From the sequence record NC_055708.1: a stretch of 64,000 nucleotides of DNA; one strand, written 5' to 3'. Source of the DNA: Enterobacteria phage ATK47. Shown in pieces: positions 2,549 to 63,225 of the stretch. The notes beneath the pieces are model-generated. The model made no database searches. It saw nothing but the letters and a program-made list of their open reading frames with translations, and had not been told where the DNA came from. Each line of letters starts with the position of its first letter. Positions within the stretch are counted from its first letter, which is position 1. The translations under genes were made by a program, and so were the position numbers.

Positions 2549-2835
2549 TTCTTTATGCTAAGGTAAAATCCGTTGAGAATGGATATGAAAGCGATCAACG
2601 TGCAGCTAAAGCACTAGTCGATTACTATGGTATTTTGACCCACTTTGAAGTTGAAAAGGTTTACGTCGACCGTTCATCTTCACAGGTTAAATTACTTTGG
2701 GAAGACCGCAAATTTAATAGTGTGAACTTTGATTTCTTTATTGAAACAGAAAAAGGTCCTCTTGAATATGATATTTTCAAGAATCCTTTAAATCTTGAAT
2801 GTATTGAGTATAATTACATTAATATGGTACGGTGA
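2545..2835 (+). CDS. hypothetical protein
   Basis: 96 aa ORF, ATGA overlap with upstream gene. Confidence 0.5.
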   Translation: MILYAKVKSVENGYESDQRAAKALVDYYGILTHFEVEKVYVDRSSSQVKLLWEDRKFNSVNFDFFIETEKGPLEYDIFKNPLNLECIEYNYINMVR

Positions 2836-2839
2836 GTAA

Positions 2840-3355
2840 ATGAATATTTGTTTAGGCAGTACAATTCCTAAGGGTTATGTAATTGATGTCACTACCTATG
2901 AAAATGACGGGGACAACTATAAAACCAAAACATTGTTTGAAGTGGAAGAGCATGAGCTCCAACAGTTTAAATATCTCTTGAAGAAATTTAAGAGTCGTCA
3001 TTCCAGCACTAAAGCTGAACGTTACTGTGGTAATACACCATTCAGTGACTGCTCGCTTATTATCTACGAATATCTGGTTGAAGGGCTGTTCTCAGACCAA
3101 CTCCGACCAGAATTTATTAAAAAGGTCTTTGGCATCGAAGTAGACCTTGGTGATAAATCTGAAGAAGACGAAGCCCGCGTATTCGACCTGTTCTTTGTGA
3201 AAGGCGATGAGATATCTCAAGGACTTATTGATATTCTTGGCTATGCTTCTGAATACTATGATTACGATTTCTTGCGTGTAGTTGAACGTGTCGAATTTGC
3301 TTATATTGAAGAAGAAATTGTTTTGCCAACTGTTAAAATGATTGATTTGCTTTAA
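2840..3355 (+). CDS. hypothetical protein
   Basis: 171 aa ORF, SD GGTGAG upstream. Confidence 0.5.
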   Translation: MNICLGSTIPKGYVIDVTTYENDGDNYKTKTLFEVEEHELQQFKYLLKKFKSRHSSTKAERYCGNTPFSDCSLIIYEYLVEGLFSDQLRPEFIKKVFGIEVDLGDKSEEDEARVFDLFFVKGDEISQGLIDILGYASEYYDYDFLRVVERVEFAYIEEEIVLPTVKMIDLL

Positions 3356-3607: not shown

Positions 3608-3952
3608 ATGAAAGGTAATATTTATCTGGTAGTTCATGATTTAACGTTTTATTTTAACGAACAGGATACAGTTATTTCCGACCGGTTGATTAATTCATTA
3701 TATCAACACGCTGATTACGTTTATTTCCAAAATGAATTTGGCCATTGGAAGTTTCTTAAAAACCGTTCCGGGTTAACTAGTTTTGAATACTTTGACCGTA
3801 AAGACCTTTTAAACGAAATCCCATTGCAACATCGGTTCCAGAAACGCGAATCACTATACTATTGTCGCCATATACCAAATGCTGAATGTGTTTATGAAGC
3901 GATTAATCTATGGCGTCGGCGTCGAGAGCAAATTGATGATATGCCAAAATAA
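3608..3952 (+). CDS. hypothetical protein
   Basis: ORF with SD GAGGAAAA before ATG at 3608; upstream part of tracked ORF overlaps the tRNA. Confidence 0.45.
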   Translation: MKGNIYLVVHDLTFYFNEQDTVISDRLINSLYQHADYVYFQNEFGHWKFLKNRSGLTSFEYFDRKDLLNEIPLQHRFQKRESLYYCRHIPNAECVYEAINLWRRRREQIDDMPK

Positions 3953-4290: not shown

Positions 4291-4335
4291 GGCATAATAA
4301 TAAATAGATAAGTTAATTAACTTAGGAAAAGCAAC

Positions 4336-4800
4336 ATGAAATCATACGCTGAATTTTTGACTGAACAATCTAGTTCAGATGTAAAAGCCGCTGCGATTGC
4401 AGCAATTCAAGCAGGTAAATATTCTTACAAAGACGCCTCTGATGAAGAACGTTTCCGTTTTATTAGAGATTTTAAAGCCGAAGGTTTTACTAATGCTAAT
4501 ACTGTTAGCCGAGTTTTTAAAAGCCTAGCTGCATCAGGTGAATTGTTCCAGAAAGCTACAGGTAAAGCACCTGCGCCAAAAACAGACCCTAAAGCAGCTC
4601 AAGAAAAAAATATCGCCAAAGGAATTATTTCTAAGTATGAAGCAATTCTTAAAGAGCTTTTAGTAATCAAAACAGAAGGCCAGAAACTGGCACGAGCACA
4701 TAGCTTCAAAGATAATCCTCACGCTCATAGCCTTGAGTATGTTGAAGATATCCAAAAACTTATTAAAGACCGTATCTGGTCTGCTAAACAAATTAAATAA
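4336..4800 (+). CDS. internal-protein-like (MKSYAEFLTE N-terminus)
   Basis: CTS-like N-terminus; SD AGGAAAAG. Confidence 0.55.
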   Translation: MKSYAEFLTEQSSSDVKAAAIAAIQAGKYSYKDASDEERFRFIRDFKAEGFTNANTVSRVFKSLAASGELFQKATGKAPAPKTDPKAAQEKNIAKGIISKYEAILKELLVIKTEGQKLARAHSFKDNPHAHSLEYVEDIQKLIKDRIWSAKQIK

Positions 4801-12348: not shown

Positions 12349-12837
12349 ATGAATATATTTGAAATGCTTCGTAATGACGAAGGTCTTAGACTGACTTTAT
12401 ACAAAGACACTGAAGGCTTTTGGACGATTGGCATAGGCCATTTAGTAACAAAGAACCCGTCTTTAGCCGTAGCTAAAGCTGAACTTGACAGAATGATCGG
12501 CCGTAAATGCAACGGTACAATTACCCTTGATGAGGCTGAAAAGCTATTTAATGAAGACGTTGATAAAGCTGTCCGCGGAATCTTGGGTAATGCTAAACTT
12601 AAACCGGTATATGATTCTTTAGATGCAGTTCGTCGGTGTGCATTGGTCAATATGGTCTTCCAAATGGGTGTAGCAGGAGTCGCCGGTTTTACTAATTCTC
12701 TTCGTATGCTTAAACAGAAACGTTGGGATGAAGCGGCAGTAAATCTAGCTCAATCTAAATGGTATCGTCAGACACCTAATCGCGCGAAACGCGTAATCTC
12801 AACATTTAAAACAGGAACTTGGAAAGCGTATATATGA
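12349..12837 (+). CDS. e: endolysin (T4 lysozyme e)
   Basis: [48 protein letters not shown]; near-identical to remembered T4 lysozyme. Confidence 0.9.
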
Positions 12838-14947: not shown

Positions 14948-15310
14948 ATGAAAGCATATCAAATTCTTGAAGGTGAACATAAAGGCACTATTTATTTTGA
15001 AGACTGTACTCAAGCCCGGATTATTGTCTCTAAGACTTTTAAAGAAGACGCTATTGTAGATCCAGAAATTTTCTACGGTTTGAATGCTCGTGAAATTGAA
15101 ATTGAACATCAACCTAAAGTTAAAATTGAAGGTGGTCAACACCTGAACGTTAACGTTCTGCGTCGCGAAACTCTGGAAGATGCAGTTAAGCATCCAGAAA
15201 AATATCCGCAGCTGACCATCCGTGTATCCGGTTATGCAGTTCGCTTTAACTCTCTGACTCCGGAACAGCAGCGCGACGTTATCGCTCGTACCTTTACCGA
15301 GAGTCTATAA
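14948..15310 (+). CDS. grcA: autonomous glycyl-radical cofactor (GrcA/YfiD-like)
   Basis: C-terminus [59 protein letters not shown] matches enterobacterial GrcA glycyl-radical domain; host-like codon usage in 3' half. Confidence 0.8.
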
Positions 15311-17499: not shown

Positions 17500-17959
17500 A
17501 AACTATATCAAGGGCGATATTGTCGCCCTGTTTTCTAAAGGTAATAATATTGCTCATGGGTGTAATTGTTTTCATACAATGGGCGCCGGTGTGGCAGGAC
17601 AATTAGCAAAGGCTTATCCAAAAATTCTGGAAGCCGATAAACTTCAAACCGAATTCGGAGACGAGTCTAAACTCGGGACTTATTCGGTTTATGAAAAATA
17701 TTTTAAGACCCATAAAGCTTATTGCTTTAATCTTTATACGCAGTTTGAGCCGGGACCTAATTTTGAGTACTCTGCTTTAATGAATTGTATAATAGAATTA
17801 AATGAATTTGGAAAGAATAAGATAACAAAGCCTGTAATTTATATGCCAAGAATTGGTGCAGGTATTGGTGGTGGAAACTGGGATGTCATCGAAGAGATTT
17901 TAGATACGTATTCCACTAAACTAGAAATTGTGATTGTTGATTGGGAACCGTTATTATGA
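17483..17959 (+). CDS. macro-domain protein (ADP-ribose binding/hydrolase fold)
   Basis: NIAHGCNCFHTMGAGVAGQL and RIGAGIGGGNWDVI resemble macro-domain glycine-rich loops; start approximate (non-ATG). Confidence 0.55.
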   Translation: MQQVIKNYIKGDIVALFSKGNNIAHGCNCFHTMGAGVAGQLAKAYPKILEADKLQTEFGDESKLGTYSVYEKYFKTHKAYCFNLYTQFEPGPNFEYSALMNCIIELNEFGKNKITKPVIYMPRIGAGIGGGNWDVIEEILDTYSTKLEIVIVDWEPLL

Positions 17960-21731: not shown

Positions 21732-22717
21732 TGAAAACAATTATGAAAGGCTACTTTGGTAGCCACCTTTATGGAACGTCTACTCCTGAATCTGACGTCG
21801 ATTTTAAAGAAATTTATGTCCCTCATGCTCGTGATATTTTGACCGGTAACGTTAAAGAACATATGAGCAAGAACACGAATAACACATCTTCTAAGAACAC
21901 AAAAGACGACGTAGACCATGAGTTGTATAGTCTAAAATATTTCTTTAAACTAGCTGCGGATGGTGAAACCGTCGCATTAGATATGCTTCATACTCCACCA
22001 AGTCTAGTAGTTAAATCTGATTTGCCTGATGTATGGAAGTATATTCAAGATAACAGGTCTCGTTTCTATACCACTAACATGAAATCTTATTTAGGGTACG
22101 TCCGTAAGCAAGCTTCTAAATACGGTGTCAAGGGTTCTCGACTGGCTGTTCTTCGTCAAGCCCTTAAACGTTCTAATGAATGGGGACAATACTTTGATAA
22201 TGGTGCAGTAATTCGTTTATCACATATGAAGAATGTTCTACCTGTAGGTGAATTTGCTTCATGGGTTGAAACCGAAAACGAGAAAACAGGTAAGCAAACA
22301 TTCTATAGTCTGTTAGACCGTAAATTCCAAGACACGTTAACCAATAAAGAGTTCAATGCTATCCTGGTTAAACTGGAAGAGAACTATGGTGAACGTGCTC
22401 GTAAAGCAGAAGCTAACGAAGGTATTGACTGGAAAGCATTGAGTCATGCATGTCGTGGTGGACTTCAATTATTGGAAATTTACAAAACCGGCGACCTGGT
22501 TTACCCACTTCAGGATGCTCCATTTATTCTCGATGTTAAGCTTGGTAAACATACGTTTAAAACTGTACAAGAATTCCTAGAAGATATCGTTGACCAAGTT
22601 GAACATGCGTCAGAACAAGCTGCCAAGAATGGTATGCAACAAAAAGTAGATACGAGTTTCTGGGATGATTTCCTTGAGCAAGTCTATCTCGAAAATCATA
22701 ATTCTTACTATAAATAA
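21728..22717 (+). CDS. Pol-beta-superfamily nucleotidyltransferase-fold protein
   Basis: GS-x12-DVD motif (GYFGSHLYGTSTPESDVDF). Confidence 0.5.
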   Translation: MMKTIMKGYFGSHLYGTSTPESDVDFKEIYVPHARDILTGNVKEHMSKNTNNTSSKNTKDDVDHELYSLKYFFKLAADGETVALDMLHTPPSLVVKSDLPDVWKYIQDNRSRFYTTNMKSYLGYVRKQASKYGVKGSRLAVLRQALKRSNEWGQYFDNGAVIRLSHMKNVLPVGEFASWVETENEKTGKQTFYSLLDRKFQDTLTNKEFNAILVKLEENYGERARKAEANEGIDWKALSHACRGGLQLLEIYKTGDLVYPLQDAPFILDVKLGKHTFKTVQEFLEDIVDQVEHASEQAAKNGMQQKVDTSFWDDFLEQVYLENHNSYYK

Positions 22718-22748
22718 GTAGATAAATAACCCTTAACTTGAGGTAAAT

Positions 22749-23009
22749 ATGAAAAAATTAGCAATTGGTTTATTCGCAGTAATGATGGCATTCTCTGTTG
22801 GTGCTACCACAGGAGCTGGTGGTAACCAGTCTTCTGGGCCTTCCAACGGTTCGGTAAATGCATCACATTCTCAGGGTATTGAGAATATCAAATCGAGCTA
22901 TATTAATAGCACTGCCGGACAAGCAACTGAAGCATGGTCAAAGGGTCGAGTAGTTACACGCTCCGTATTCTGTGATATGCCTAATTATGTTGCTAAGTGC
23001 GATAAGTAA
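22749..23009 (+). CDS. secreted small protein
   Basis: signal peptide MKKLAIGLFAVMMAFSVGA. Confidence 0.45.
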   Translation: MKKLAIGLFAVMMAFSVGATTGAGGNQSSGPSNGSVNASHSQGIENIKSSYINSTAGQATEAWSKGRVVTRSVFCDMPNYVAKCDK

Positions 23010-23127: not shown

Positions 23128-24108
23128 ATGTTCAACGTTCAAATCAAAAAAGGTATCTATCGTAATAACGAAATCTCTGGTTCTTATGTTGCCACAAAGA
23201 CATGGTTCCCGGCAAAGCTTAATCCTGAATGTTCCCACTTAGGTGATGGTAAAATTTTCGTTATGATTGATGGTTCTGAACGTGGAGTATGGGTCTTCAA
23301 ATCAGACATCGTAATGGAAGGAGTTGAGACGTCACCAGTTGCAGTTGTTGAAAGCACTGAAGATATGAAAACTCGTATCAACAAACGCTTTAAAGTAATG
23401 AACATGATGACGAATGGCATTATTGATGGCAAAATTCGTTCACTCATTATTTCAGGTGCAGCTGGTATTGGTAAGACGTATTCTCTGGATAAAGCACTTA
23501 ATAATGCTAATGATAATGGTTTCATCAAATACAAAAGCATTAATGGTAAAATCTCCGGTATTGGCCTTTACGAACAACTTTGGCTCAACCGTGATGAAGA
23601 CAGCGTTCTCTTAATCGATGACGTTGACGTATTCTCAGATATGGACATCCTGAACCTTCTTAAAGCAGCATTAGATACCGGAGATAAACGCAAAGTTTGT
23701 TGGAGCACTGCGTCATCTTATCTCGAGGATAAGGGTATTGATAAAGAATTTGAGTTTGAAGGTACTATCGTTTTCATTACAAACGTTGATATCGATAAAG
23801 AGTTAGAACGGGGTTCGAAACTTGCTCCACACCTTCAAGCTTTAGTATCTCGTTCAGTGTATCTCGACCTTGGAGTACACTCTAATGAAGAGATTATGGT
23901 TCGAGTTGAAGATGTAATATTATCTACTGATATGATGCAGAAACGTGGCTTGACTGATGCTGAAACGTATAAAGCATTGTCCTGGATGAAGGCTAATGTA
24001 TCTCGTCTTCGCAATGTATCATTACGTACGGCTCTTTATGTAGCAGATTTTATTTCAACCGATAAAGATGGTTGGGAGGAAATCTCCGAAGTAACTTTAC
24101 TGAAATAA
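23128..24108 (+). CDS. AAA/P-loop ATPase
   Basis: Walker A GAAGIGKT, Walker B VLLIDDVD. Confidence 0.6.
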   Translation: MFNVQIKKGIYRNNEISGSYVATKTWFPAKLNPECSHLGDGKIFVMIDGSERGVWVFKSDIVMEGVETSPVAVVESTEDMKTRINKRFKVMNMMTNGIIDGKIRSLIISGAAGIGKTYSLDKALNNANDNGFIKYKSINGKISGIGLYEQLWLNRDEDSVLLIDDVDVFSDMDILNLLKAALDTGDKRKVCWSTASSYLEDKGIDKEFEFEGTIVFITNVDIDKELERGSKLAPHLQALVSRSVYLDLGVHSNEEIMVRVEDVILSTDMMQKRGLTDAETYKALSWMKANVSRLRNVSLRTALYVADFISTDKDGWEEISEVTLLK

Positions 24109-24245
24109 GCTTATAGGAAGTTCTGAGGTAACAAAAGCCATAAAGATGAATAATCATATGGCTTACCTCAAAGAAGGACACCAGGAACCTACTGAGGGCA
24201 TAGAAATATTTAAAATAATGATGTACAAATCAAAGAGGATATGTT

Positions 24246-24533
24246 ATGGATTTTATGCAAAAAATTAAAGCCGCAGTCGAACTCTATGCTCATCGTATGG
24301 TTAGTTCTACGATGCAATATAGCGAGGAGGTTCGCCAGGACTCTTCCTTGAAAGGAAAAACTAAAGCCTTAATTACCTTAGATCGTTTGCAAAAGAATGC
24401 CATAGAGATGCTCCAGTACGACAAGGGTGTATATAAGAAAGAACAGGAAGAGAAACTTAAATCTGAAAAATTACAAAAAATCCCGAAGTCGGTTTGGTTC
24501 AGTGGAAAAAATACCGAAAAAAGTTTCTTTTAG
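24246..24533 (+). CDS. hypothetical protein
   Basis: 95 aa ORF with SD AGAGGA. Confidence 0.4.
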   Translation: MDFMQKIKAAVELYAHRMVSSTMQYSEEVRQDSSLKGKTKALITLDRLQKNAIEMLQYDKGVYKKEQEEKLKSEKLQKIPKSVWFSGKNTEKSFF

Positions 24534-24535
24534 TT

Positions 24536-24575
24536 GTTTACAAGGTCTATGGTTATGTTATTATAGACCTATCAA
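24536..24575 (+). promoter_or_regulatory. early promoter with palindrome aggtctat/atagacct
   Basis: GTTTACA, TATTAT. Confidence 0.5.
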
Positions 24576-24591
24576 CTACTGGAGGTAAAAC

Positions 24592-25119
24592 ATGAACGCT
24601 AAAGATATTTTCAACCTGGTAAATTATAACGACGGTAAATTTAAATCTGAAGCACAAAGCAAGTTCTTTAATGACGTTGCTTATGGTAACGAGATTACCG
24701 TAGATGGAGGTCAGATTTTCAAATCTCGCTGGAATTGGATTGTTATCATCGATTCAGTTGGAATTGTGGAAGTCTACAAAAACACTAACAAAAACCGTAC
24801 ATTATTCTGGTCTCGTGAAACTAACGAGCAGTACAAAAAGGATAAAGCATCTCGTTTATCCAAAGTAACCCAGGAAGATATCGAGTTTATTAAGAAAGAT
24901 ATCGAGATGTACGAAAATTTAATCGCTGAAGACCAGGCAGTACTCGATAAGTTTGATGAAATTAAAGCTTCTCGTGAAATCCCTGACTTCATGAAAGAAA
25001 CAGTAAACGAACGATACGCTCTCACTTCAGAACGTATTGCAAACTATACAAAACAGAAAGCAGAACGTATTAGTACTCTTCGGAAATTTGAAGAACGTTT
25101 AAAGACGGTTCACGCATAA
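24592..25119 (+). CDS. hypothetical protein
   Basis: 175 aa ORF with SD GGAGG. Confidence 0.5.
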   Translation: MNAKDIFNLVNYNDGKFKSEAQSKFFNDVAYGNEITVDGGQIFKSRWNWIVIIDSVGIVEVYKNTNKNRTLFWSRETNEQYKKDKASRLSKVTQEDIEFIKKDIEMYENLIAEDQAVLDKFDEIKASREIPDFMKETVNERYALTSERIANYTKQKAERISTLRKFEERLKTVHA

Positions 25120-25148
25120 ACGCTTTACCCAAGGACGGGTTATAATGG
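25119..25148 (+). promoter_or_regulatory. middle-type promoter (MotA-box-like CGCTTTA at about -30, TATAAT)
   Basis: resembles T4 middle promoter layout. Confidence 0.45.
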
Positions 25149-25181
25149 TTTTGAGTTCCAATTCAATCTGAGGAAATAGTT

Positions 25182-26177
25182 ATGAGCATTACATCTGATG
25201 CGATAAAACATGAAATTAACGGTTTATGTGCTTCACAGATTAAAGTGTGGTTTAAAGACCATAATGATCGCAGAGCGCTTAATTATGAACGAATTGCTAT
25301 CCAAGTTCATCAATTACTGGTTAGTAAATTTGATTTTCATATGCCGTCTGAAATCTATACTAATCTACCGCGAGCGCTTATTAAAGCGTGTAAAGGCTAC
25401 GGAAAATCAATGGCTGACGGAATCTTCAGCGCGCTGAATAAACTTAACGTTCTGTCGATGATTAACTCTAACAATATCCTGCGTAATCTAGGACGTACTG
25501 ATTTGTTCGGTCGTGAACAGTGTAAAATGCCTTTGAAACGGATTGTTGCTCATCTTAACGAGAACCAAACACGTTTTATGGCCGTAACAGCACGTTTACA
25601 AATGGGCCTAGATCGTCAGATGAACTTTAAAACTCATCCACGTTATTCAGGTTCAACAGACTTTTATAAATGTGAGCTTCAAAAGGTTGGTGGTAAAACT
25701 GTCTTAGTAGTTCGTGTAACGTTTGAAGGACGACGTCAAGGATATTTTGACATAATCGGCTCTGGTCTTAAACATTGTGGATTTATCGACGAAGTTGATA
25801 TCAAGCGAGACGGCATTGGATACCGTATTGGGTATGTTTGTACTCTTAAAGAAGAGATTTCAGGACCAGCTCCAGGACTAAAAGACGTTAGATATAAAGA
25901 CGAGCTCGTTGAAGAAATAAAAGAAGTTGAATATGATATCAACCAAGAAGATGCTCTTAAAGACCTTATTGATGAACTGAACCAAGATGTTATTCCTGTT
26001 CAGAAATTTGAATCAAAACATGCTGAGCAAATCAAATACTTTGAAGCTTTGATTAACGAACTTAATGTAACTATTCAACAGACTGACGATGAAATCTCAC
26101 GATTAGCAGGCTTAAACGGTAAAAATAAAACAGAACGAGCTAATCTTATTCAAGTAGTAAAACTTCTTAAGGAATGA
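25182..26177 (+). CDS. hypothetical protein with C-terminal coiled coil
   Basis: 331 aa ORF; first of three similar-sized tandem genes. Confidence 0.5.
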   Translation: MSITSDAIKHEINGLCASQIKVWFKDHNDRRALNYERIAIQVHQLLVSKFDFHMPSEIYTNLPRALIKACKGYGKSMADGIFSALNKLNVLSMINSNNILRNLGRTDLFGREQCKMPLKRIVAHLNENQTRFMAVTARLQMGLDRQMNFKTHPRYSGSTDFYKCELQKVGGKTVLVVRVTFEGRRQGYFDIIGSGLKHCGFIDEVDIKRDGIGYRIGYVCTLKEEISGPAPGLKDVRYKDELVEEIKEVEYDINQEDALKDLIDELNQDVIPVQKFESKHAEQIKYFEALINELNVTIQQTDDEISRLAGLNGKNKTERANLIQVVKLLKE

Positions 26178-26208
26178 TGTACAACCAAGGATGGTTGGAG
26201 TATAATAA
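26176..26208 (+). promoter_or_regulatory. promoter cassette AACCAAGGATGGTTGGAGTATAAT
   Basis: near-identical element at 27196-27228. Confidence 0.45.
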
Positions 26209-26232
26209 ATTTTTCAACATGAGGAATATAAA

Positions 26233-27192
26233 ATGGCTTTTATTACACGTAGAGAACTTATCAAAGAATTTACCTCGAACGCATATACTCCAGGACCTAA
26301 TCCTATCCGTATGCCTGTAAAGACTCCTGAAGAGATTGAGGAAATCTGTTCATATTATGGGATTACTTCTCGTATGTTTACCCAATTTGAATGCGTTACT
26401 AACACACCCGTTAAAGAGTTCATTAAAAATGGTGAGTTCAGCCGTTTATTGGCCAAACAGAAACTTCGTAATTTTTGTATTGGCGGTGAAGGTCAATATT
26501 TCGCTAAGCAGTTCCGGAATAACCTTAACAATCTGATGGCCATTGCTTCTCGTATTCGTCCTCAAGCAATTAACATGAAACATTTGAAATATACTTACGA
26601 TAAGTTAGAAATCATGGTTATCAGTGAGAACGAGTTCACTCTTACGTATAAACCTAAGAATGATAACGTTGCTCGTGTATTCCACCAAGCGTTGGAAGTT
26701 TTAGGTGATAATATCCACCAGATTAAAGCAATTTATTCTCGTGAGCTTAATATTATCGACCCTATCAAGAATAAGGGCCATATCGCTATCCAGGCTCGTG
26801 TATCTATTGGTAAAAAGGTTCCTGCACCATGGTGGCACAAAGACTCTGAATATTATCAAAATCTTAAAAAGGAAAATGCAACATTTGAAGCGTCAATTAC
26901 TGCAACCCCAATTGGTAATGCTGAAGTTCTAGGTTCATATTCTACTTCGGGTAAATCAATGTTTAAAGGTTTGCCAAATGTGTGCAAACTGTCTGCAGTA
27001 AAACTAAATGTTTCTAATGACCTTCTTCCGGTCGAAGATTACCATTACAATCAAATCAAGGCCACTATGGACCAACTGTCTGTTGAACTTGACAAAGCAC
27101 AAGCTAAGCTTCGTGATGCTCAAAGTGTTGTAACGAATCTCCAGTTGCAGTACTCTAAACTTTTTAACGCAATGAATGCATTAAAATCATAA
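26233..27192 (+). CDS. hypothetical protein with C-terminal coiled coil
   Basis: 319 aa ORF. Confidence 0.5.
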   Translation: MAFITRRELIKEFTSNAYTPGPNPIRMPVKTPEEIEEICSYYGITSRMFTQFECVTNTPVKEFIKNGEFSRLLAKQKLRNFCIGGEGQYFAKQFRNNLNNLMAIASRIRPQAINMKHLKYTYDKLEIMVISENEFTLTYKPKNDNVARVFHQALEVLGDNIHQIKAIYSRELNIIDPIKNKGHIAIQARVSIGKKVPAPWWHKDSEYYQNLKKENATFEASITATPIGNAEVLGSYSTSGKSMFKGLPNVCKLSAVKLNVSNDLLPVEDYHYNQIKATMDQLSVELDKAQAKLRDAQSVVTNLQLQYSKLFNAMNALKS

Positions 27193-27195
27193 AAC

Positions 27196-27228
27196 GGTTT
27201 ACAACCAAGGACGGTTGGAGTATAATGA
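27196..27228 (+). promoter_or_regulatory. promoter cassette GTTTACAACCAAGGACGGTTGGAGTATAAT
   Basis: second copy of 26176 element. Confidence 0.45.
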
Positions 27229-27254
27229 ATCTATCTTAACGAGAGGAAAATATT

Positions 27255-28205
27255 ATGACACGTTCACATTACATTGAATACTTTGCCGGGCTTATCGCTA
27301 ACGTTCATGCTCAGCGCGCTACTGGTGCACTAGGATTTGATGTTCCACACCGAGATGTAGTAAGTGGTATTCTTCGCGATTTTGGTACATACACAGGCCA
27401 AGAAAATCATATCTGTAAAGATACTCAAAATGCATATTCTCATTCATTAGGGACGCTGCTTCAATGGTTCAAACGTTCTCGTTTATTATCTTCTACTGTA
27501 GCTCGCGATAACATTAAAAACTTTATGAAGCCGAGCTTTATTAAATCTGTGACATCTAAAACCGATTTGGTTGAATTCACTATTGTTAATGATGTTAAAA
27601 AGACTCATTTGGCTGATTGGTTATCTACCATTCCTGAAACTAAATTTGCTGATAAATTTGCTTGTGAATTCAATAACCAAGTGAATATGCTTTTTAAACA
27701 TTCTCGTAAATTATTCACGGGCGGTGATGGTCGTACAAATAAAGTTCATGTTAAAGATTGGGTTACTGCAGTATTCAAACCGACCGGTAATGGTAACGCA
27801 TCATTATCAATTGATATCCAGGTTCCTTATTACTACTCACGTAATCTCGGTACCATGAAAGCCGAAGAAATTAATAAGCACAACAAAACCGTTCGTTCAT
27901 TGTCTTATAAACTTATTACATTGTTAGAGACTATGGATGTTGTTGAAACGTTCGACGAATCCGAAGATAACGGTTCAATGTTATACAGTTCTCGTACCAG
28001 AATTAAGCTGAAGAACCCTAACGAGTATAAACTTAAGACTATTAAAGAACCTAAAGTAGAAAAAGTTGACAACTTGAGCGAAGAACGTGAATACCTCAAA
28101 TCTCGTCTGAAAGAAGTCGAAGCCCAGATTAAAGAACAAACTAAATCGTTAAAAGCTCTTAATGCGAAAGCGGATGGTTTACGAAATGCCATTGAGGTTT
28201 TATAA
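27255..28205 (+). CDS. hypothetical protein with C-terminal coiled coil
   Basis: 316 aa ORF. Confidence 0.5.
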   Translation: MTRSHYIEYFAGLIANVHAQRATGALGFDVPHRDVVSGILRDFGTYTGQENHICKDTQNAYSHSLGTLLQWFKRSRLLSSTVARDNIKNFMKPSFIKSVTSKTDLVEFTIVNDVKKTHLADWLSTIPETKFADKFACEFNNQVNMLFKHSRKLFTGGDGRTNKVHVKDWVTAVFKPTGNGNASLSIDIQVPYYYSRNLGTMKAEEINKHNKTVRSLSYKLITLLETMDVVETFDESEDNGSMLYSSRTRIKLKNPNEYKLKTIKEPKVEKVDNLSEEREYLKSRLKEVEAQIKEQTKSLKALNAKADGLRNAIEVL

Positions 28206-28510
28206 TGAAACTACGTCTTTTAGAGGATATTGATATGAACACTAATCACAGCTTGGTTAAGTTTATTGACGATAGTTCAAAGATTGAATTTGTTCAGCGA
28301 GATAAAATCCACGGTGAAGAAGAGTTCGTTCCTCCAGCATGGAACGAAATCATGAAAATGGTTGAACGACGTGAAAATGCTGCCAAATCGGCAGCAAAAC
28401 ACCCATGTCCGGAATGTGGAACTATCCAAGTCCAACTGGTTAACTGGACCACTGATAACTTGAAATTGAAATGCCGTAAATGCTTCCACAATTTTGAGAG
28501 AACATTATAA
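28205..28510 (+). CDS. zinc-ribbon protein
   Basis: CPECG...CRKCFH. Confidence 0.45.
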   Translation: MKLRLLEDIDMNTNHSLVKFIDDSSKIEFVQRDKIHGEEEFVPPAWNEIMKMVERRENAAKSAAKHPCPECGTIQVQLVNWTTDNLKLKCRKCFHNFERTL

Positions 28511-28923
28511 TGAGATATAGCCTTCGTTGTTTTATCGCAGCTTTAGTTTTTGCTATTATTCCATTCATTTGGAACAGCCAGAATACTTACATGGAAACTA
28601 AAGTAATTCCTGTGGAGGTAGTGGAATTAATCTCAGGACAATCTACAGGAAAATATTCTAAATTGGAATTTATTGCAGTCTATAAAGATGAGCAAGGACG
28701 AGTTTTTGACAGGCGTGTATCGCCATCGTTTTATACGCTTCTGAATAAAGGTGATACGATAGCTATAGAAATTCGTGAGATGGATATCAAACAAACTACT
28801 AAAGATAACTTGATTTGGTTCTTTGGTACAGTGTTGTTGGTTTCTATCTGTATCACAGGTTTTATTACATGTATTGTATTTGGCGTTGCATATTTAATCG
28901 ATGAAAGGAAAAATAATGTTTAA
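28510..28923 (+). CDS. membrane protein
   Basis: N- and C-terminal TM segments. Confidence 0.45.
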   Translation: MRYSLRCFIAALVFAIIPFIWNSQNTYMETKVIPVEVVELISGQSTGKYSKLEFIAVYKDEQGRVFDRRVSPSFYTLLNKGDTIAIEIREMDIKQTTKDNLIWFFGTVLLVSICITGFITCIVFGVAYLIDERKNNV

Positions 28924-29179
28924 AGTGTACGGGTACGACTCTACTATTCATAAATGCATTTATTGCGATAATGCGAAACGATTGCTGACTGTTAAGAAAC
29001 AGCCATTCGAATTCATTAATGTTATGCCGGAAAAAGGTGTTTTTGATGATGAGAAAATTGCTGAGCTTCTGGCTAAGCTTGGACGTGAAACACATGTTGG
29101 ATTGACGATGCCTCAGGTGTTTGCTCCTGACGGAAGTCACATTGGTGGATTTGACCAACTACGAGAATATTTTAAATGA
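28916..29179 (+). CDS. nrdC: glutaredoxin/thioredoxin NrdC
   Basis: MFKVYGYDS..IHKCIYCDNAKRLL..MPQVFAPDGSHIGGFDQLREYFK matches remembered T4 NrdC; 87 aa. Confidence 0.85.
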   Translation: MFKVYGYDSTIHKCIYCDNAKRLLTVKKQPFEFINVMPEKGVFDDEKIAELLAKLGRETHVGLTMPQVFAPDGSHIGGFDQLREYFK

Positions 29180-60523: not shown

Positions 60524-60991
60524 ATGGGTATTATTAACACTGCAATAGATTCAGTTTATGCATATAAGTTTATTCGACTAATGCAAAAACCTTTTACCGA
60601 ATGGAAAGCGTACGAAGCCAAAATCATCGACGAACGTGGAAGTGTTCTTAAACGTCCTTCCACTCCTGAAGAGAAAGCGGCTTATACACCTTTTCATGCT
60701 TCAGTTCGTTCAATGAAGCGAATGATGAGCACTGTTCCGGGTCTTAATGGAATGGCCTCAATGATGTCTGCCTGGAGTGCTGTAGCATCCCGCTATAACA
60801 TTACAGAAGAACAACAGAAAGAAATATTTAAAGAACTCCCTTTATTTGAGGATATGGTTGCTGGTGATTCAGGTGGCAGCCCTCAAGCTATTGCATCAGG
60901 AACAACTACAGGTGCAGTCGTAAATAAAGGTCCAGAACAAATTCCTTCCAAGAAAAGAAAGCGAATTAAAGTAAATATTAATAAGTTGTGA
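60524..60991 (+). CDS. hypothetical protein
   Basis: ORF from ATG at 60524 after SD AGGAGG. Confidence 0.45.
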   Translation: MGIINTAIDSVYAYKFIRLMQKPFTEWKAYEAKIIDERGSVLKRPSTPEEKAAYTPFHASVRSMKRMMSTVPGLNGMASMMSAWSAVASRYNITEEQQKEIFKELPLFEDMVAGDSGGSPQAIASGTTTGAVVNKGPEQIPSKKRKRIKVNINKL

Positions 60992-61030
60992 TATGATGGC
61001 CTTATTAATTTAAGGCCTCTGGAGAATACT

Positions 61031-62053
61031 ATGGCTGAATGGATAGATAATGAATTTGCTTATCGTGCGTTTTCTCACCTCCCTCGTTTTAGACAAATCA
61101 ATAATTCAAGCACATTTAAATTAACGTTTCGTTGTCCAGTTTGTGGCGACTCTCAGACAGATGCAATGAAAGCCCGCGGATGGTATTATGGTGGTACTCC
61201 AGGTAATGTGCATTGCTATAACTGTCAGTATCATAATACAATTTCCGGATACTTAAAAGAGTATGATGAAGAGCTTTATCGCGAGTATCTAATGGAAGTT
61301 CGTAAAGAAAAAGTTAGAATGGAACCAAAGATTGAAAAGGTTCCTGAACATAAACCAGAACCGGAGAAAAAGACTATAAATTCTTTGCCGTCTTGTTCTC
61401 GTCTGGACAAGCTGCCTGAAGAGCATCCTATTGTGAAATATGTTAAGTCTCGGTGTATTCCTAAAGAATCGTGGAACAGATTATGGTTCACATTAGAATG
61501 GCCTAAATTGGTCAACAAGATTCAACCTGGTACGTATAAGAAAGAGATTCCCGAGCCACGTTTAGTGATTCCTATTTTTAATAAAGATGGGAAGGCCGAG
61601 TCATTCCAAGGACGTGCACTTCGTAAAGATGCTCCTCAGAAATATATCACTATTAAAGCGTTTGAGTCTGCAACAAAAATTTATGGTGTTGAACGTGTTA
61701 AGGAAGGAGACGTCTGGGTAATGGAAGGCCCTATTGATAGTTTATTCATACCCAATGCAATCGCTATTACAGGCGGCTCAATAGATTTAGATGTGGTACC
61801 ATTTAAAGAACGTCGGGTATGGGTAATGGATAATGAACCTAGGCATCCAGATACTATAGCTCGCATGAAGCGATTAGTTGATGCAGGCGAACGTGTCATG
61901 TTCTGGGACCGAGCTCCGTGGAGTTCAAAGGATGTGAATGATATGGTAATGAAAGAAAATGCAACACCACAAGAAATTTTAGAATATATGAAACAGAATA
62001 TTTCAAGTGGGTTGCATGCTAAAATGAGATTATCTCGTTATTCGAAGATTTAA
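61031..62053 (+). CDS. 61: DNA primase gp61
   Basis: Zn ribbon CPVCGDS...CYNC; TOPRIM-like region; near-identical N-terminus to remembered T4 gp61. Confidence 0.9.
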   Translation: MAEWIDNEFAYRAFSHLPRFRQINNSSTFKLTFRCPVCGDSQTDAMKARGWYYGGTPGNVHCYNCQYHNTISGYLKEYDEELYREYLMEVRKEKVRMEPKIEKVPEHKPEPEKKTINSLPSCSRLDKLPEEHPIVKYVKSRCIPKESWNRLWFTLEWPKLVNKIQPGTYKKEIPEPRLVIPIFNKDGKAESFQGRALRKDAPQKYITIKAFESATKIYGVERVKEGDVWVMEGPIDSLFIPNAIAITGGSIDLDVVPFKERRVWVMDNEPRHPDTIARMKRLVDAGERVMFWDRAPWSSKDVNDMVMKENATPQEILEYMKQNISSGLHAKMRLSRYSKI

Positions 62054-62247
62054 ACAAGCCCTATAATAGCAAAGGCCAAATCAACTACAGTATCCAACGG
62101 AACAGAAGGAACTATAATACCATGGGCAACTAACAACGGTGCAATCCCGAAGTTCCATGAAATAATGCCACCTACAACTATTGCGGCGATAGCAGTTTTC
62201 TTTTTATTGCCTTTAATAGCGTTGATTAACGATGGAAGTTTAAACAT
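62050..62247 (-). CDS. small two-TM membrane protein on opposite strand
   Basis: minus-strand ORF with strong SD (AAGGAGAT) 7 nt before ATG; AATAAATA late-promoter-like element upstream. Confidence 0.4.
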   Translation of the reverse strand: MFKLPSLINAIKGNKKKTAIAAIVVGGIISWNFGIAPLLVAHGIIVPSVPLDTVVDLAFAIIGLV

Positions 62248-62335
62248 AATATCTCCTTGGTTACCTATTATTTATTACGCTTTATAAAATTAATGTTAGA
62301 ATTAACTCTCTTATACTGAATTGAAAGGAAAAATA

Positions 62336-62857
62336 ATGGCACACTTTAATGAATGTTCACAACTTATTTCTGGTGTTGATAAAGCAGAAGAAGCTTATTT
62401 TAATGCTCTGATTCACGAAGATAAAGACCCACTGCAGGTAATGCTTGATATGCAGAAATCTTTACAGGTTCGTCTGGCAAATGACAAGCCTGAACATAAC
62501 AAACATCCTGATGAATTGGCCACTGCTGGTGATGTTGTTGATTGGCTGCGTAATCAGAAAGATTATATTGATGATGAATTCCGTGAACTGTTGACTTCAC
62601 TTGGTGGTATGAGCAATGGTGAAAAAGCCGCCAGCAGTGTATGGAAGCCATGGAAAGCACAACATGCTGAATATCGAAATCGTCGTATCGATGAACTGTC
62701 TCCTGAAGACCAGCTTGAAATTAAATTTGAAATGATTGATATTCTGCATTTCGTTCTAAATATGTTCCAAGGTCTAGGTCTTTCGGCTGAAGAAATCTTT
62801 AAACTTTACTACTTGAAAAACCAACACAACTTTGAACGTCAGGATAATGGTTACTAA
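62336..62857 (+). CDS. 56: dCTPase/dCDPase gp56 (MazG-like)
   Basis: MAHFNECSQLI...; 173 aa; position next to 61 as in T4. Confidence 0.8.
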   Translation: MAHFNECSQLISGVDKAEEAYFNALIHEDKDPLQVMLDMQKSLQVRLANDKPEHNKHPDELATAGDVVDWLRNQKDYIDDEFRELLTSLGGMSNGEKAASSVWKPWKAQHAEYRNRRIDELSPEDQLEIKFEMIDILHFVLNMFQGLGLSAEEIFKLYYLKNQHNFERQDNGY

Positions 62858-62863
62858 TTAAGT

Positions 62864-62871
62864 TATAAATA
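62864..62871 (+). promoter_or_regulatory. late promoter TATAAATA upstream of soc
   Basis: exact T4 late promoter consensus. Confidence 0.55.
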
Positions 62872-62902
62872 CACCTGTAATTAAACAACAAAGGAGTTAA
62901 TT

Positions 62903-63139
62903 ATGGGTGGTTATGTAAACATCAAAACCTTTACGCATCCTGCTGGTGAAGGCAAAGAAGTTAAAGGTATGGAAGTTTCTGTTCCGTTTGAGATTTATTC
63001 AAACGAACATCGGATTGCAGATTCTCATTACCAAATCTTTCCATCAGAAAAGGCAGCTTATTCTGATGTCGTTTCTGATGCAGCAACTTGGAAAACTAAG
63101 AACGCTGCAATGTTTACCCCTACGCCAGTAAGTGGTTAA
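62903..63139 (+). CDS. soc: small outer capsid protein Soc
   Basis: GYVNIKTF...HYQIFPSEKAAYS matches remembered T4 Soc. Confidence 0.8.
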   Translation: MGGYVNIKTFTHPAGEGKEVKGMEVSVPFEIYSNEHRIADSHYQIFPSEKAAYSDVVSDAATWKTKNAAMFTPTPVSG

Positions 63140-63148
63140 ATAATTTAA

Positions 63149-63172
63149 GGAATCCTTCGGGATTCCTTTTTT
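63149..63172 (+). terminator. rho-independent terminator (ggaatcc ttcg ggattcc TTTTTT)
   Basis: UUCG hairpin + T6. Confidence 0.6.
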
Positions 63173-63183
63173 CGTTTCTAGAG

Positions 63184-63225
63184 TTTACATCCACTAAAAA
63201 CTATGTTAAGATATTCTTACTTACT
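63184..63225 (+). promoter_or_regulatory. early promoter
   Basis: GTTTACA, TATGTTAAGAT. Confidence 0.4.

Follow-up and report, generated by a model that had tools for sequence, protein, structure and literature searches.

In bacteriophage T4, late transcription starts at the promoter TATAAATA at positions -13 to -6. Of 50 listed T4 late sites 32 match it perfectly, 9 carry A at -13 and a single site shows a TA-to-AT change; in RB69 and related phages, conservation of T(-13) is poor (PMC2988020, PMC1524935). All early and middle T4 transcripts are of one polarity and only late ones run in the opposite direction, and at some sites each of the two strands is read, at separate times (PMC2988020). 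Several T4 late genes (soc, e, rI and 49) lie within early regions and have their own gp55-dependent promoter, an 8-bp -10-type box that is followed by a strong Shine-Dalgarno (SD) sequence; these genes are read from the strand of their early neighbours. Here we analyze a small gene that has the same arrangement of box and SD, with the box 21-31 nt before the ATG at this gene and those genes taken together, but that is encoded on the other strand, convergent with an early gene, the DNA primase gene 61. It is found in a 64,000-nt stretch of DNA (hereafter the window) that, over positions 61000-63200, is 100% identical to KT184310.1, the genome of the RB69-like T-even Enterobacteria phage ATK48 (Mosigvirus; window position 61000 corresponds to position 85504 of the record), and the annotation deposited for KT184310.1 24505-88504 served as that of the whole window.

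The reading that we favor, and that we hold as a whole to be somewhat better than an even bet, is that this gene encodes a late-expressed, single-pass inner-membrane microprotein of T4-type enterobacterial phages that acts within the membrane. The gene itself is not new, and we do not present it as a discovery: it belongs to a catalogued but uncharacterized family, which the records of hundreds of T4-like genomes have listed as a hypothetical protein ever since RB69 was annotated. The ATK48 protein, ANZ51272.1 (product line "hypothetical protein, similar to RB69 ORF029c"), is of the same family as RB69ORF029w (NP_861719.1), the "dam.1" protein of RB10 (AIT74127.1) and PHROG 2024, whose genes have the same position and orientation everywhere. 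Literature searches returned no paper on "RB69ORF029w", "phrog_2024" or "dam.1", general searches on T4 small open reading frames (ORFs), ribosome profiling (Ribo-seq) and transcription start site mapping returned nothing relevant to the gene, and the T4 RNA-seq and omics papers that we examined do not treat the locus.

Comparison across phages shows that the small ORF on the minus strand is a genuine gene, one that encodes a protein and has evolved under purifying selection. The predicted protein aligns with the phrog_2024 profile from end to end (E 1.9e-27; residues 1-65 on profile positions 1-65 of 65), and the same profile was matched by 11/11 diverse family members. A tblastn search matched 691 phage records, and in 684 the match covers nearly the full length; the T4 and T2 copies have ~54% identity to ATK48, and the more distant members reside in T4-like phages whose hosts include Klebsiella, Salmonella, Citrobacter, Raoultella and Enterobacter, among others. 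The reading frame is kept across genera down to 20-30% identity. Between ATK48 and T4 there are 31, 12 and 42 differences at codon positions 1, 2 and 3, respectively, such that position 2 has changed the least, and Nei-Gojobori ratios of nonsynonymous to synonymous divergence (dN/dS) range from 0.05 to 0.47 within clades and from 0.24 to 0.34 between clades where dS is finite. The family is nonetheless narrow, since an exhaustive hidden Markov model (HMM) search of 1.84 billion cluster representatives produced only 9 hits, all of them members of the PHROG 2024 family, some at 20-34% identity.

Immediately upstream of the gene, the minus strand reads, 5' to 3', ...TTTTATAAAGCGT-AATAAATA-ATAGGTAACC-AAGGAGAT-ATT-ATG. 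An earlier note on this DNA, made without database searches, had pointed to a strong SD and to an element resembling the T4 late promoter, and both are borne out by comparison: a box of the form [A/G/C]ATAAATA precedes the gene in 11/12 lineages, and ATTAAATA takes its place in the twelfth, in each case 14-22 nt before the ATG, and a strong SD (AGGAGG, AAGGAG or GGAGG) follows the box in all 12, within flanking DNA that cannot be aligned between clades. In 12/12 lineages the box lacks the consensus T at -13 and has A, G or C there instead (window position 62276; position 2710 of the T4 locus, L006; and others). The exact AATAAATA variant also precedes e and rI in the same genome, with a gap between box and ATG of 21 nt at the small gene compared with 24-31 nt at e, rI.1, rI, 49 and soc in the window.

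The core motif of the box is scarce in this DNA. ATAAATA occurs at 12 sites in the window, where 30.2 +/- 5.4 are expected (all 100 shuffled versions had at least 12), and 9/12 of these sites lie no more than 40 nt 5' of an ORF start, including those of the known late genes e, rI.1, rI, 49 and soc, a distribution that fits avoidance of spurious late promoters. A search of the minus strand upstream of the small gene found no sigma-70-like promoter. Since the box is conserved across lineages and matches the variant at e and rI, since no sigma-70-like promoter was found, and since early and middle transcripts in T4 have the opposite polarity, late gp55-dependent transcription of the small gene is the best inference from the sequence, with a putative start near 62263 and a leader of ~16 nt. 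No intrinsic terminator for the gene was found on the minus strand down to position 60900, that is, for more than 1.1 kb, and there is no room for one between the stops of the small gene and the primase gene, such that an mRNA of the small gene would have to run on, antisense, into the 3' end of gene 61.

The encoded protein is probably a single-pass (bitopic) inner-membrane microprotein with its N-terminus in the cytoplasm and its C-terminus outside (N-in/C-out), ending in a periplasmic tail of ~24 residues. Hydrophobicity analysis finds one membrane-competent segment, at residues ~18-41, and an AlphaFold2 (AF2) model built from a 20-sequence alignment (mean predicted local distance difference test score, pLDDT, of 84.7) places helices at residues 3-11, 15-41 and 51-62. 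The earlier note had proposed a late-expressed protein with two transmembrane segments (TMs), encoded antisense within the replication cluster. Its antisense gene for a small, predicted membrane protein stands, and late expression remains the best inference; the second TM does not. The two-TM hairpin was rejected on three grounds: the last 19 residues have a summed apparent insertion free energy (dGapp) of +6 to +13 kcal/mol, which speaks against a second TM, with a second hydrophobic stretch of 12-15 residues; the AF2 helix at 51-62, of 12 residues, is too short to span a membrane; and the TMHMM analysis of Nolan et al. 2006 gives a single TM, at residues 21-41.

The N-in/C-out orientation is predicted from the distribution of lysine and arginine, with 4-6 such residues on the N-terminal side of the TM compared with 0-1 on the C-terminal side in 10/10 members analyzed. 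In the predicted layout, residues 1-17 form a basic, amphipathic cytoplasmic segment, the TM at ~18-41 contains W31, N32 and P37, and G43-x3-P47-x4-D52 follows. A short hydrophobic helix (51-62) would lie on the periplasmic side, the C-terminus reads ...DLAFAIIGLV, and the layout has no soluble domain. In the family alignment W31, P37 and G43 never vary, at least 90% of members keep N32 (replaced by Asp in one of them), P47 and G63, and position 52 is acidic, giving the pattern W-N-x4-P-x5-G-x3-P-x4-[D/E]. We also considered a TM of the signal-anchor-release (SAR) type, which is rich in Gly and Ala, and dropped it: the ATK48 and T4 TMs are rich in Ala, Gly and Ser, but that of Gaprivervirus is rich in Leu.

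The gene is placed in the same way wherever we looked. At every locus inspected (RB69, PhAPEC2, T4, T2, CJ20, three metagenomic relatives, and phages of the genera Jiaodavirus, Gelderlandvirus and Kanagawavirus) it is encoded on the opposite strand and points toward the primase gene tail to tail, with stop codons that overlap at many of these loci, including the TTAA overlap in T4 and T2, and are otherwise 7-18 nt apart. Its neighbor on the far side varies, being the dCTPase gene, dam, a mazG-like gene, a gene beside a methyltransferase gene, or an unnamed ORF. Gaprivervirus phages carry a second paralog, or its 119-bp remnant, between the first copy and the primase gene.

Where it is present in full (loci L007, L012 and L018 in our numbering, at 2707..2907 in all three), this second paralog is a divergent 66-aa ORF (MGTLFYQIWKLTSKK...) that begins 8 nt past the first copy, has an SD only and is presumably co-transcribed with the first copy, and its tail resembles the "LPPxTxEH" type of Klebsiella and Kanagawavirus phages. 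In CJ20 and locus L019, codon 2 of the second paralog is TGA (ATGGGA to ATGTGA), so that it is apparently pseudogenized (L005 and L019, downstream of 2698). In the Mosigvirus Shigella phage SSE1 (MK639187.1), the place of gene 56, next to the small gene, is annotated as a 390-aa "homing endonuclease" (L033 1036..2208), possibly an insertion or a fused annotation; neither the small gene nor the overlap that it shares with the primase gene is affected.

The comparison also exposes a gap in the annotation of T4. In the reference record NC_000866.4, the 310 bp between dam and gene 61 are left empty, and they contain a 66-codon homolog at 17738..17938 on the plus strand (L006 2739..2939); the T2 record LC348380.1 likewise lacks the annotation. 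Homologs are annotated elsewhere, as a Pharokka call on OZ209057.1 and as "dam.1" in RB10. The canonical T4 annotation is missing a widely conserved gene of T4-type enterobacterial phages that is probably expressed late.

If these elements are combined, gp55-RNA polymerase would transcribe the small gene, at late times only, from a short AATAAATA promoter of the gene's own, and translation would start from a strong SD on the ~16-nt leader. The product would insert as a single-pass protein with its basic N-terminus in the cytoplasm, its mid-membrane Trp, near-invariant Asn and Pro kink within the TM, and a periplasmic tail of ~24 residues that combines the G-x3-P-x4-D/E element with the short hydrophobic helix. 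Because the TM carries a polar Asn or Asp at its middle and the protein has no soluble domain, we argue that it would act by helix-helix association within the membrane, either by self-oligomerization or by binding another membrane protein, and would serve in an accessory capacity in some event at the membrane late in infection. Among the specific guesses that can be made about this event, lysis timing or envelope integrity would rank first, a speculative choice that we make with low confidence.

Several points weigh against this reading. The part that concerns function, namely TM-TM association and a link to lysis, derives from the anatomy of the protein, and the searches turned up no homolog with a known function. 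For the TM of ATK48, the summed dGapp is slightly positive (+2.4 to +2.8), on a crude scale without position weighting. The consensus T(-13) occurs in none of the lineages, so the promoter may be weak, and the HMM-based scan for RB69 late promoters by Nolan et al. 2006 made no call at this ORF; the weakness may even be deliberate, or selected for, although the independent lineages are few. Finally, the gene is frameshifted in two records, T4_ev240 (LR597657.1; L009 2411..2470), through a 1-nt deletion in an A-run (GGTAATAAAAACG compared with GGTAATAAGAAACG in T4), and ERS-1 (PP337211.1, an unverified record; L008 2492..2691), near the C-terminus. Unless these frameshifts are homopolymer sequencing errors, laboratory growth may therefore not require the gene.

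The alternative that survives best, though we think it unlikely, is a holin-, pinholin- or viroporin-like pore, in which a TM oligomer would line a small pore with Asn and Trp and a late depolarization would help to trigger or time lysis; in this form the holin-like idea of the earlier note is easiest to defend. The product is indeed small, is probably both late and embedded in the membrane, and has a mid-TM Trp that never varies, a near-invariant Asn and conserved Pro and Gly, and if high doses of the product were toxic, a promoter below consensus in every lineage would make sense. UniProt labels a single member of the family, the phage OE5505 homolog, as "Holin", without supporting evidence in the data visible to us. 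Foldseek searches of the PDB and BFVD returned nothing beyond family members, with this label on one of the BFVD matches. Pfam searches, with the single protein and then with 11 members, gave no significant match (the best was GTA_holin_3TM, E 0.1, for 1/11 members), and NCBIfam, PADLOC and a PDB sequence profile gave no match for the protein.

Compared with what defines described holins, the protein does have at least one TM in a small protein (~18-41), but lacks a hydrophilic, highly charged C-terminal domain, with 0-1 Lys and Arg on the C-terminal side in all members and a hydrophobic ...AIIGLV end, and it belongs to no holin family described in Pfam, NCBIfam or the PDB. Neither is its gene adjacent to that of the endolysin, as the lysozyme gene e lies at window 12349..12837, ~50 kb away. 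This missing linkage has little weight, because the T4 holin gene t is also unlinked to e. T-even phages already use the holin T, together with RI and RIII, which further counts against such a role. No positive evidence was found for the holin-like role that the earlier note had suggested.

A different kind of alternative, to which we give a low probability, places the function in the RNA: a late promoter directed into the 3' end of gene 61 would produce antisense RNA or convergent transcription that shuts down primase mRNA, leaving the ORF secondary. The tail-to-tail arrangement with the primase gene in all genera examined, the often overlapping stops and the lack of a minus-strand terminator for more than 1.1 kb agree with such a role, and differently timed transcription of both strands is known at some T4 sites (PMC2988020). 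However, selection has clearly acted on the protein, as seen in dN/dS values below 1, invariant residues and a strong SD in every lineage, and antisense control of primase can therefore not be the whole story. Direct abutment is also not required, because a paralog or its remnant intervenes in Gaprivervirus, and the arrangement could be merely inherited synteny. Equally improbable, in our estimate, is a dual module that combines antisense silencing of primase late in infection with a self-associating single-pass microprotein, which would either depolarize the membrane like a viroporin or pinholin or modulate the T/RI lysis clock, and whose dose a deliberately sub-consensus promoter would hold down.

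It is very improbable that the product is a superinfection-exclusion or immunity factor, blocking DNA entry at the inner membrane or guarding the cell from lysis from without, as Imm and Sp do. The product is a small, predicted inner-membrane protein, and its gene lies less than 3 kb from imm and sp. But hhalign comparison with the Imm, Sp and RI proteins of the same phage gave probabilities below 1% (Imm 0.1%, Sp 0.4%), on which kinship to all three was rejected, and PADLOC gave no hit. The orientation and the promoter box point to late expression, which would fit poorly with exclusion, since T4 exclusion is set up within minutes by the early genes imm and sp, and the periplasmic part is of only ~24 residues. 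For the exclusion factor raised in the earlier note, we likewise found nothing positive.

The last alternative, a chance ORF or annotation artefact within an untranslated spacer between genes 61 and 56, could draw on the empty 310-bp gap of NC_000866.4 and the missing ORF call in LC348380.1, but has a negligible probability and is effectively refuted by the comparative evidence, with substitutions phased by codon position, dN/dS below 0.5, intact copies in 684/691 records, a frame conserved at 20-30% identity with invariant W, P and G, and a conserved SD and promoter box.

We return to the single-pass late membrane protein as the favored reading, and give the layout of its locus in Table 1. 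The position that the earlier note had assigned to the gene, between primase and dCTPase and converging on gene 61 with overlapping stops, is confirmed, and its claim that this is the only opposite-strand gene holds as well, because the KT184310.1 annotation of the window contains exactly one minus-strand coding sequence (CDS), ANZ51272.1.

Table 1. Features of the small-gene locus, in window coordinates
Feature	Position	Strand	Remarks
Small membrane-protein CDS	62050..62247	-	65 aa, 65 codons, MFKLPS...IIGLV; ANZ51272.1; RB69ORF029w / "dam.1" / PHROG 2024
T4-type late (gp55) promoter box	62269..62276	-	variant AATAAATA, A at -13; 21 nt 5' of ATG
Shine-Dalgarno sequence AAGGAGAT	62251..62258	-	3 nt 5' of ATG (62247-62245)
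TTAA, overlapping convergent stops	62050..62053	.	small-gene stop 62050-62052 (TAA, -), primase stop 62051-62053 (TAA, +)
Gene 61, DNA primase gp61	61031..62053	+	tail-to-tail neighbor of small gene
Gene 56, dCTPase gp56	62336..62857	+	other-side neighbor of small gene
MotA-type middle-promoter-like element of gene 56	62279..62302	+	GCTTTA-N12-TAGAAT; sequence reading and SA79RD annotation
Soc	62903..63139	+	next after dCTPase gp56

The 88-bp intergenic region upstream of the small gene holds both its late box and the divergent MotA-type-like element of gene 56, and in the record of phage SA79RD the homologous site of this element is annotated as a T4-type middle promoter.

Elsewhere in the window, no ORF follows the minus-strand ATAAATA sites at 3619-3625 and 14989-14995, at which late transcription might start in antisense. 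Two plus-strand ORFs that are absent from the KT184310.1 annotation also follow late-type boxes. The first, at 4336..4800, encodes 154 aa (MKSYAEFLTEQ...) and has AATAAATA upstream at 4299-4306; its N-terminus may resemble the leader of T4 internal head proteins. The second, at 22749..23009, encodes 86 aa with a signal-peptide-like N-terminus (MKKLAIGLFAVMMAFSVGA...) and is preceded by two boxes, TATAAATA at 22709-22716 and GATAAATA at 22721-22728. Some product names in KT184310.1 appear to be mis-transferred, among them "thioredoxin" for a run of nrdC.x ORFs, "pyruvate formate-lyase" for vs.6, "molybdenum ABC transporter ... binding protein" for ModA.2 and a RegB note on rI.1 (example loci are window 23128..29179 and 14948..15310, and L001 6325..6504).

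The omission from NC_000866.4 has practical consequences. Studies that count reads or peptides on the annotation of NC_000866.4 are blind to the small gene because the reference record omits it, and a time-resolved study of the T4 transcriptome and proteome quantified only features annotated in NC_000866.4 (PMC9697503). Within ~64 kb of early and middle genes, this is the sole gene read from the other strand, and its late box is conserved across at least 8 genera, which together make it a clear-cut case in which to test whether late transcription runs antisense into a gene of replication. Part of the residual value of the finding lies in the box itself, which is conserved across genera and yet never consensus at -13. 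The protein is among the more widely conserved small, predicted membrane proteins of T-even phages without an assigned function, and is a tractable and cheap experimental target.

How does this gene compare with known systems? Unlike the promoters of soc, e, rI and 49, its box never has T at -13 and drew no call in the 2006 RB69 promoter scan. Its probable product resembles the holins and pinholins, such as T4 T and phage 21 S68, and the antiholin RI, which are small, late inner-membrane proteins, and T and RI share with it an N-in/C-out topology with a single TM. However, the periplasmic part of T and RI is a folded domain, whereas that of the small-gene product would comprise ~24 residues, and no sequence or profile similarity was found. 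Holins of classes I and II carry a charged C-terminal tail, which this protein lacks, and its gene is not beside an endolysin gene. Imm, Sp and HK97 gp15 are also small proteins of the envelope encoded by phages, and the small gene has imm and sp in its neighborhood, but comparison of its product with Imm and Sp found no similarity. Of these two, Imm contains two TMs, whereas Sp is secreted into the periplasm; both are early, and the small gene is probably late. Finally, viroporin-type single-pass oligomeric channels such as influenza M2 offer an analogy, not a homology, in that they place a polar residue next to an aromatic one within the TM, as W31-N32 would be placed here.

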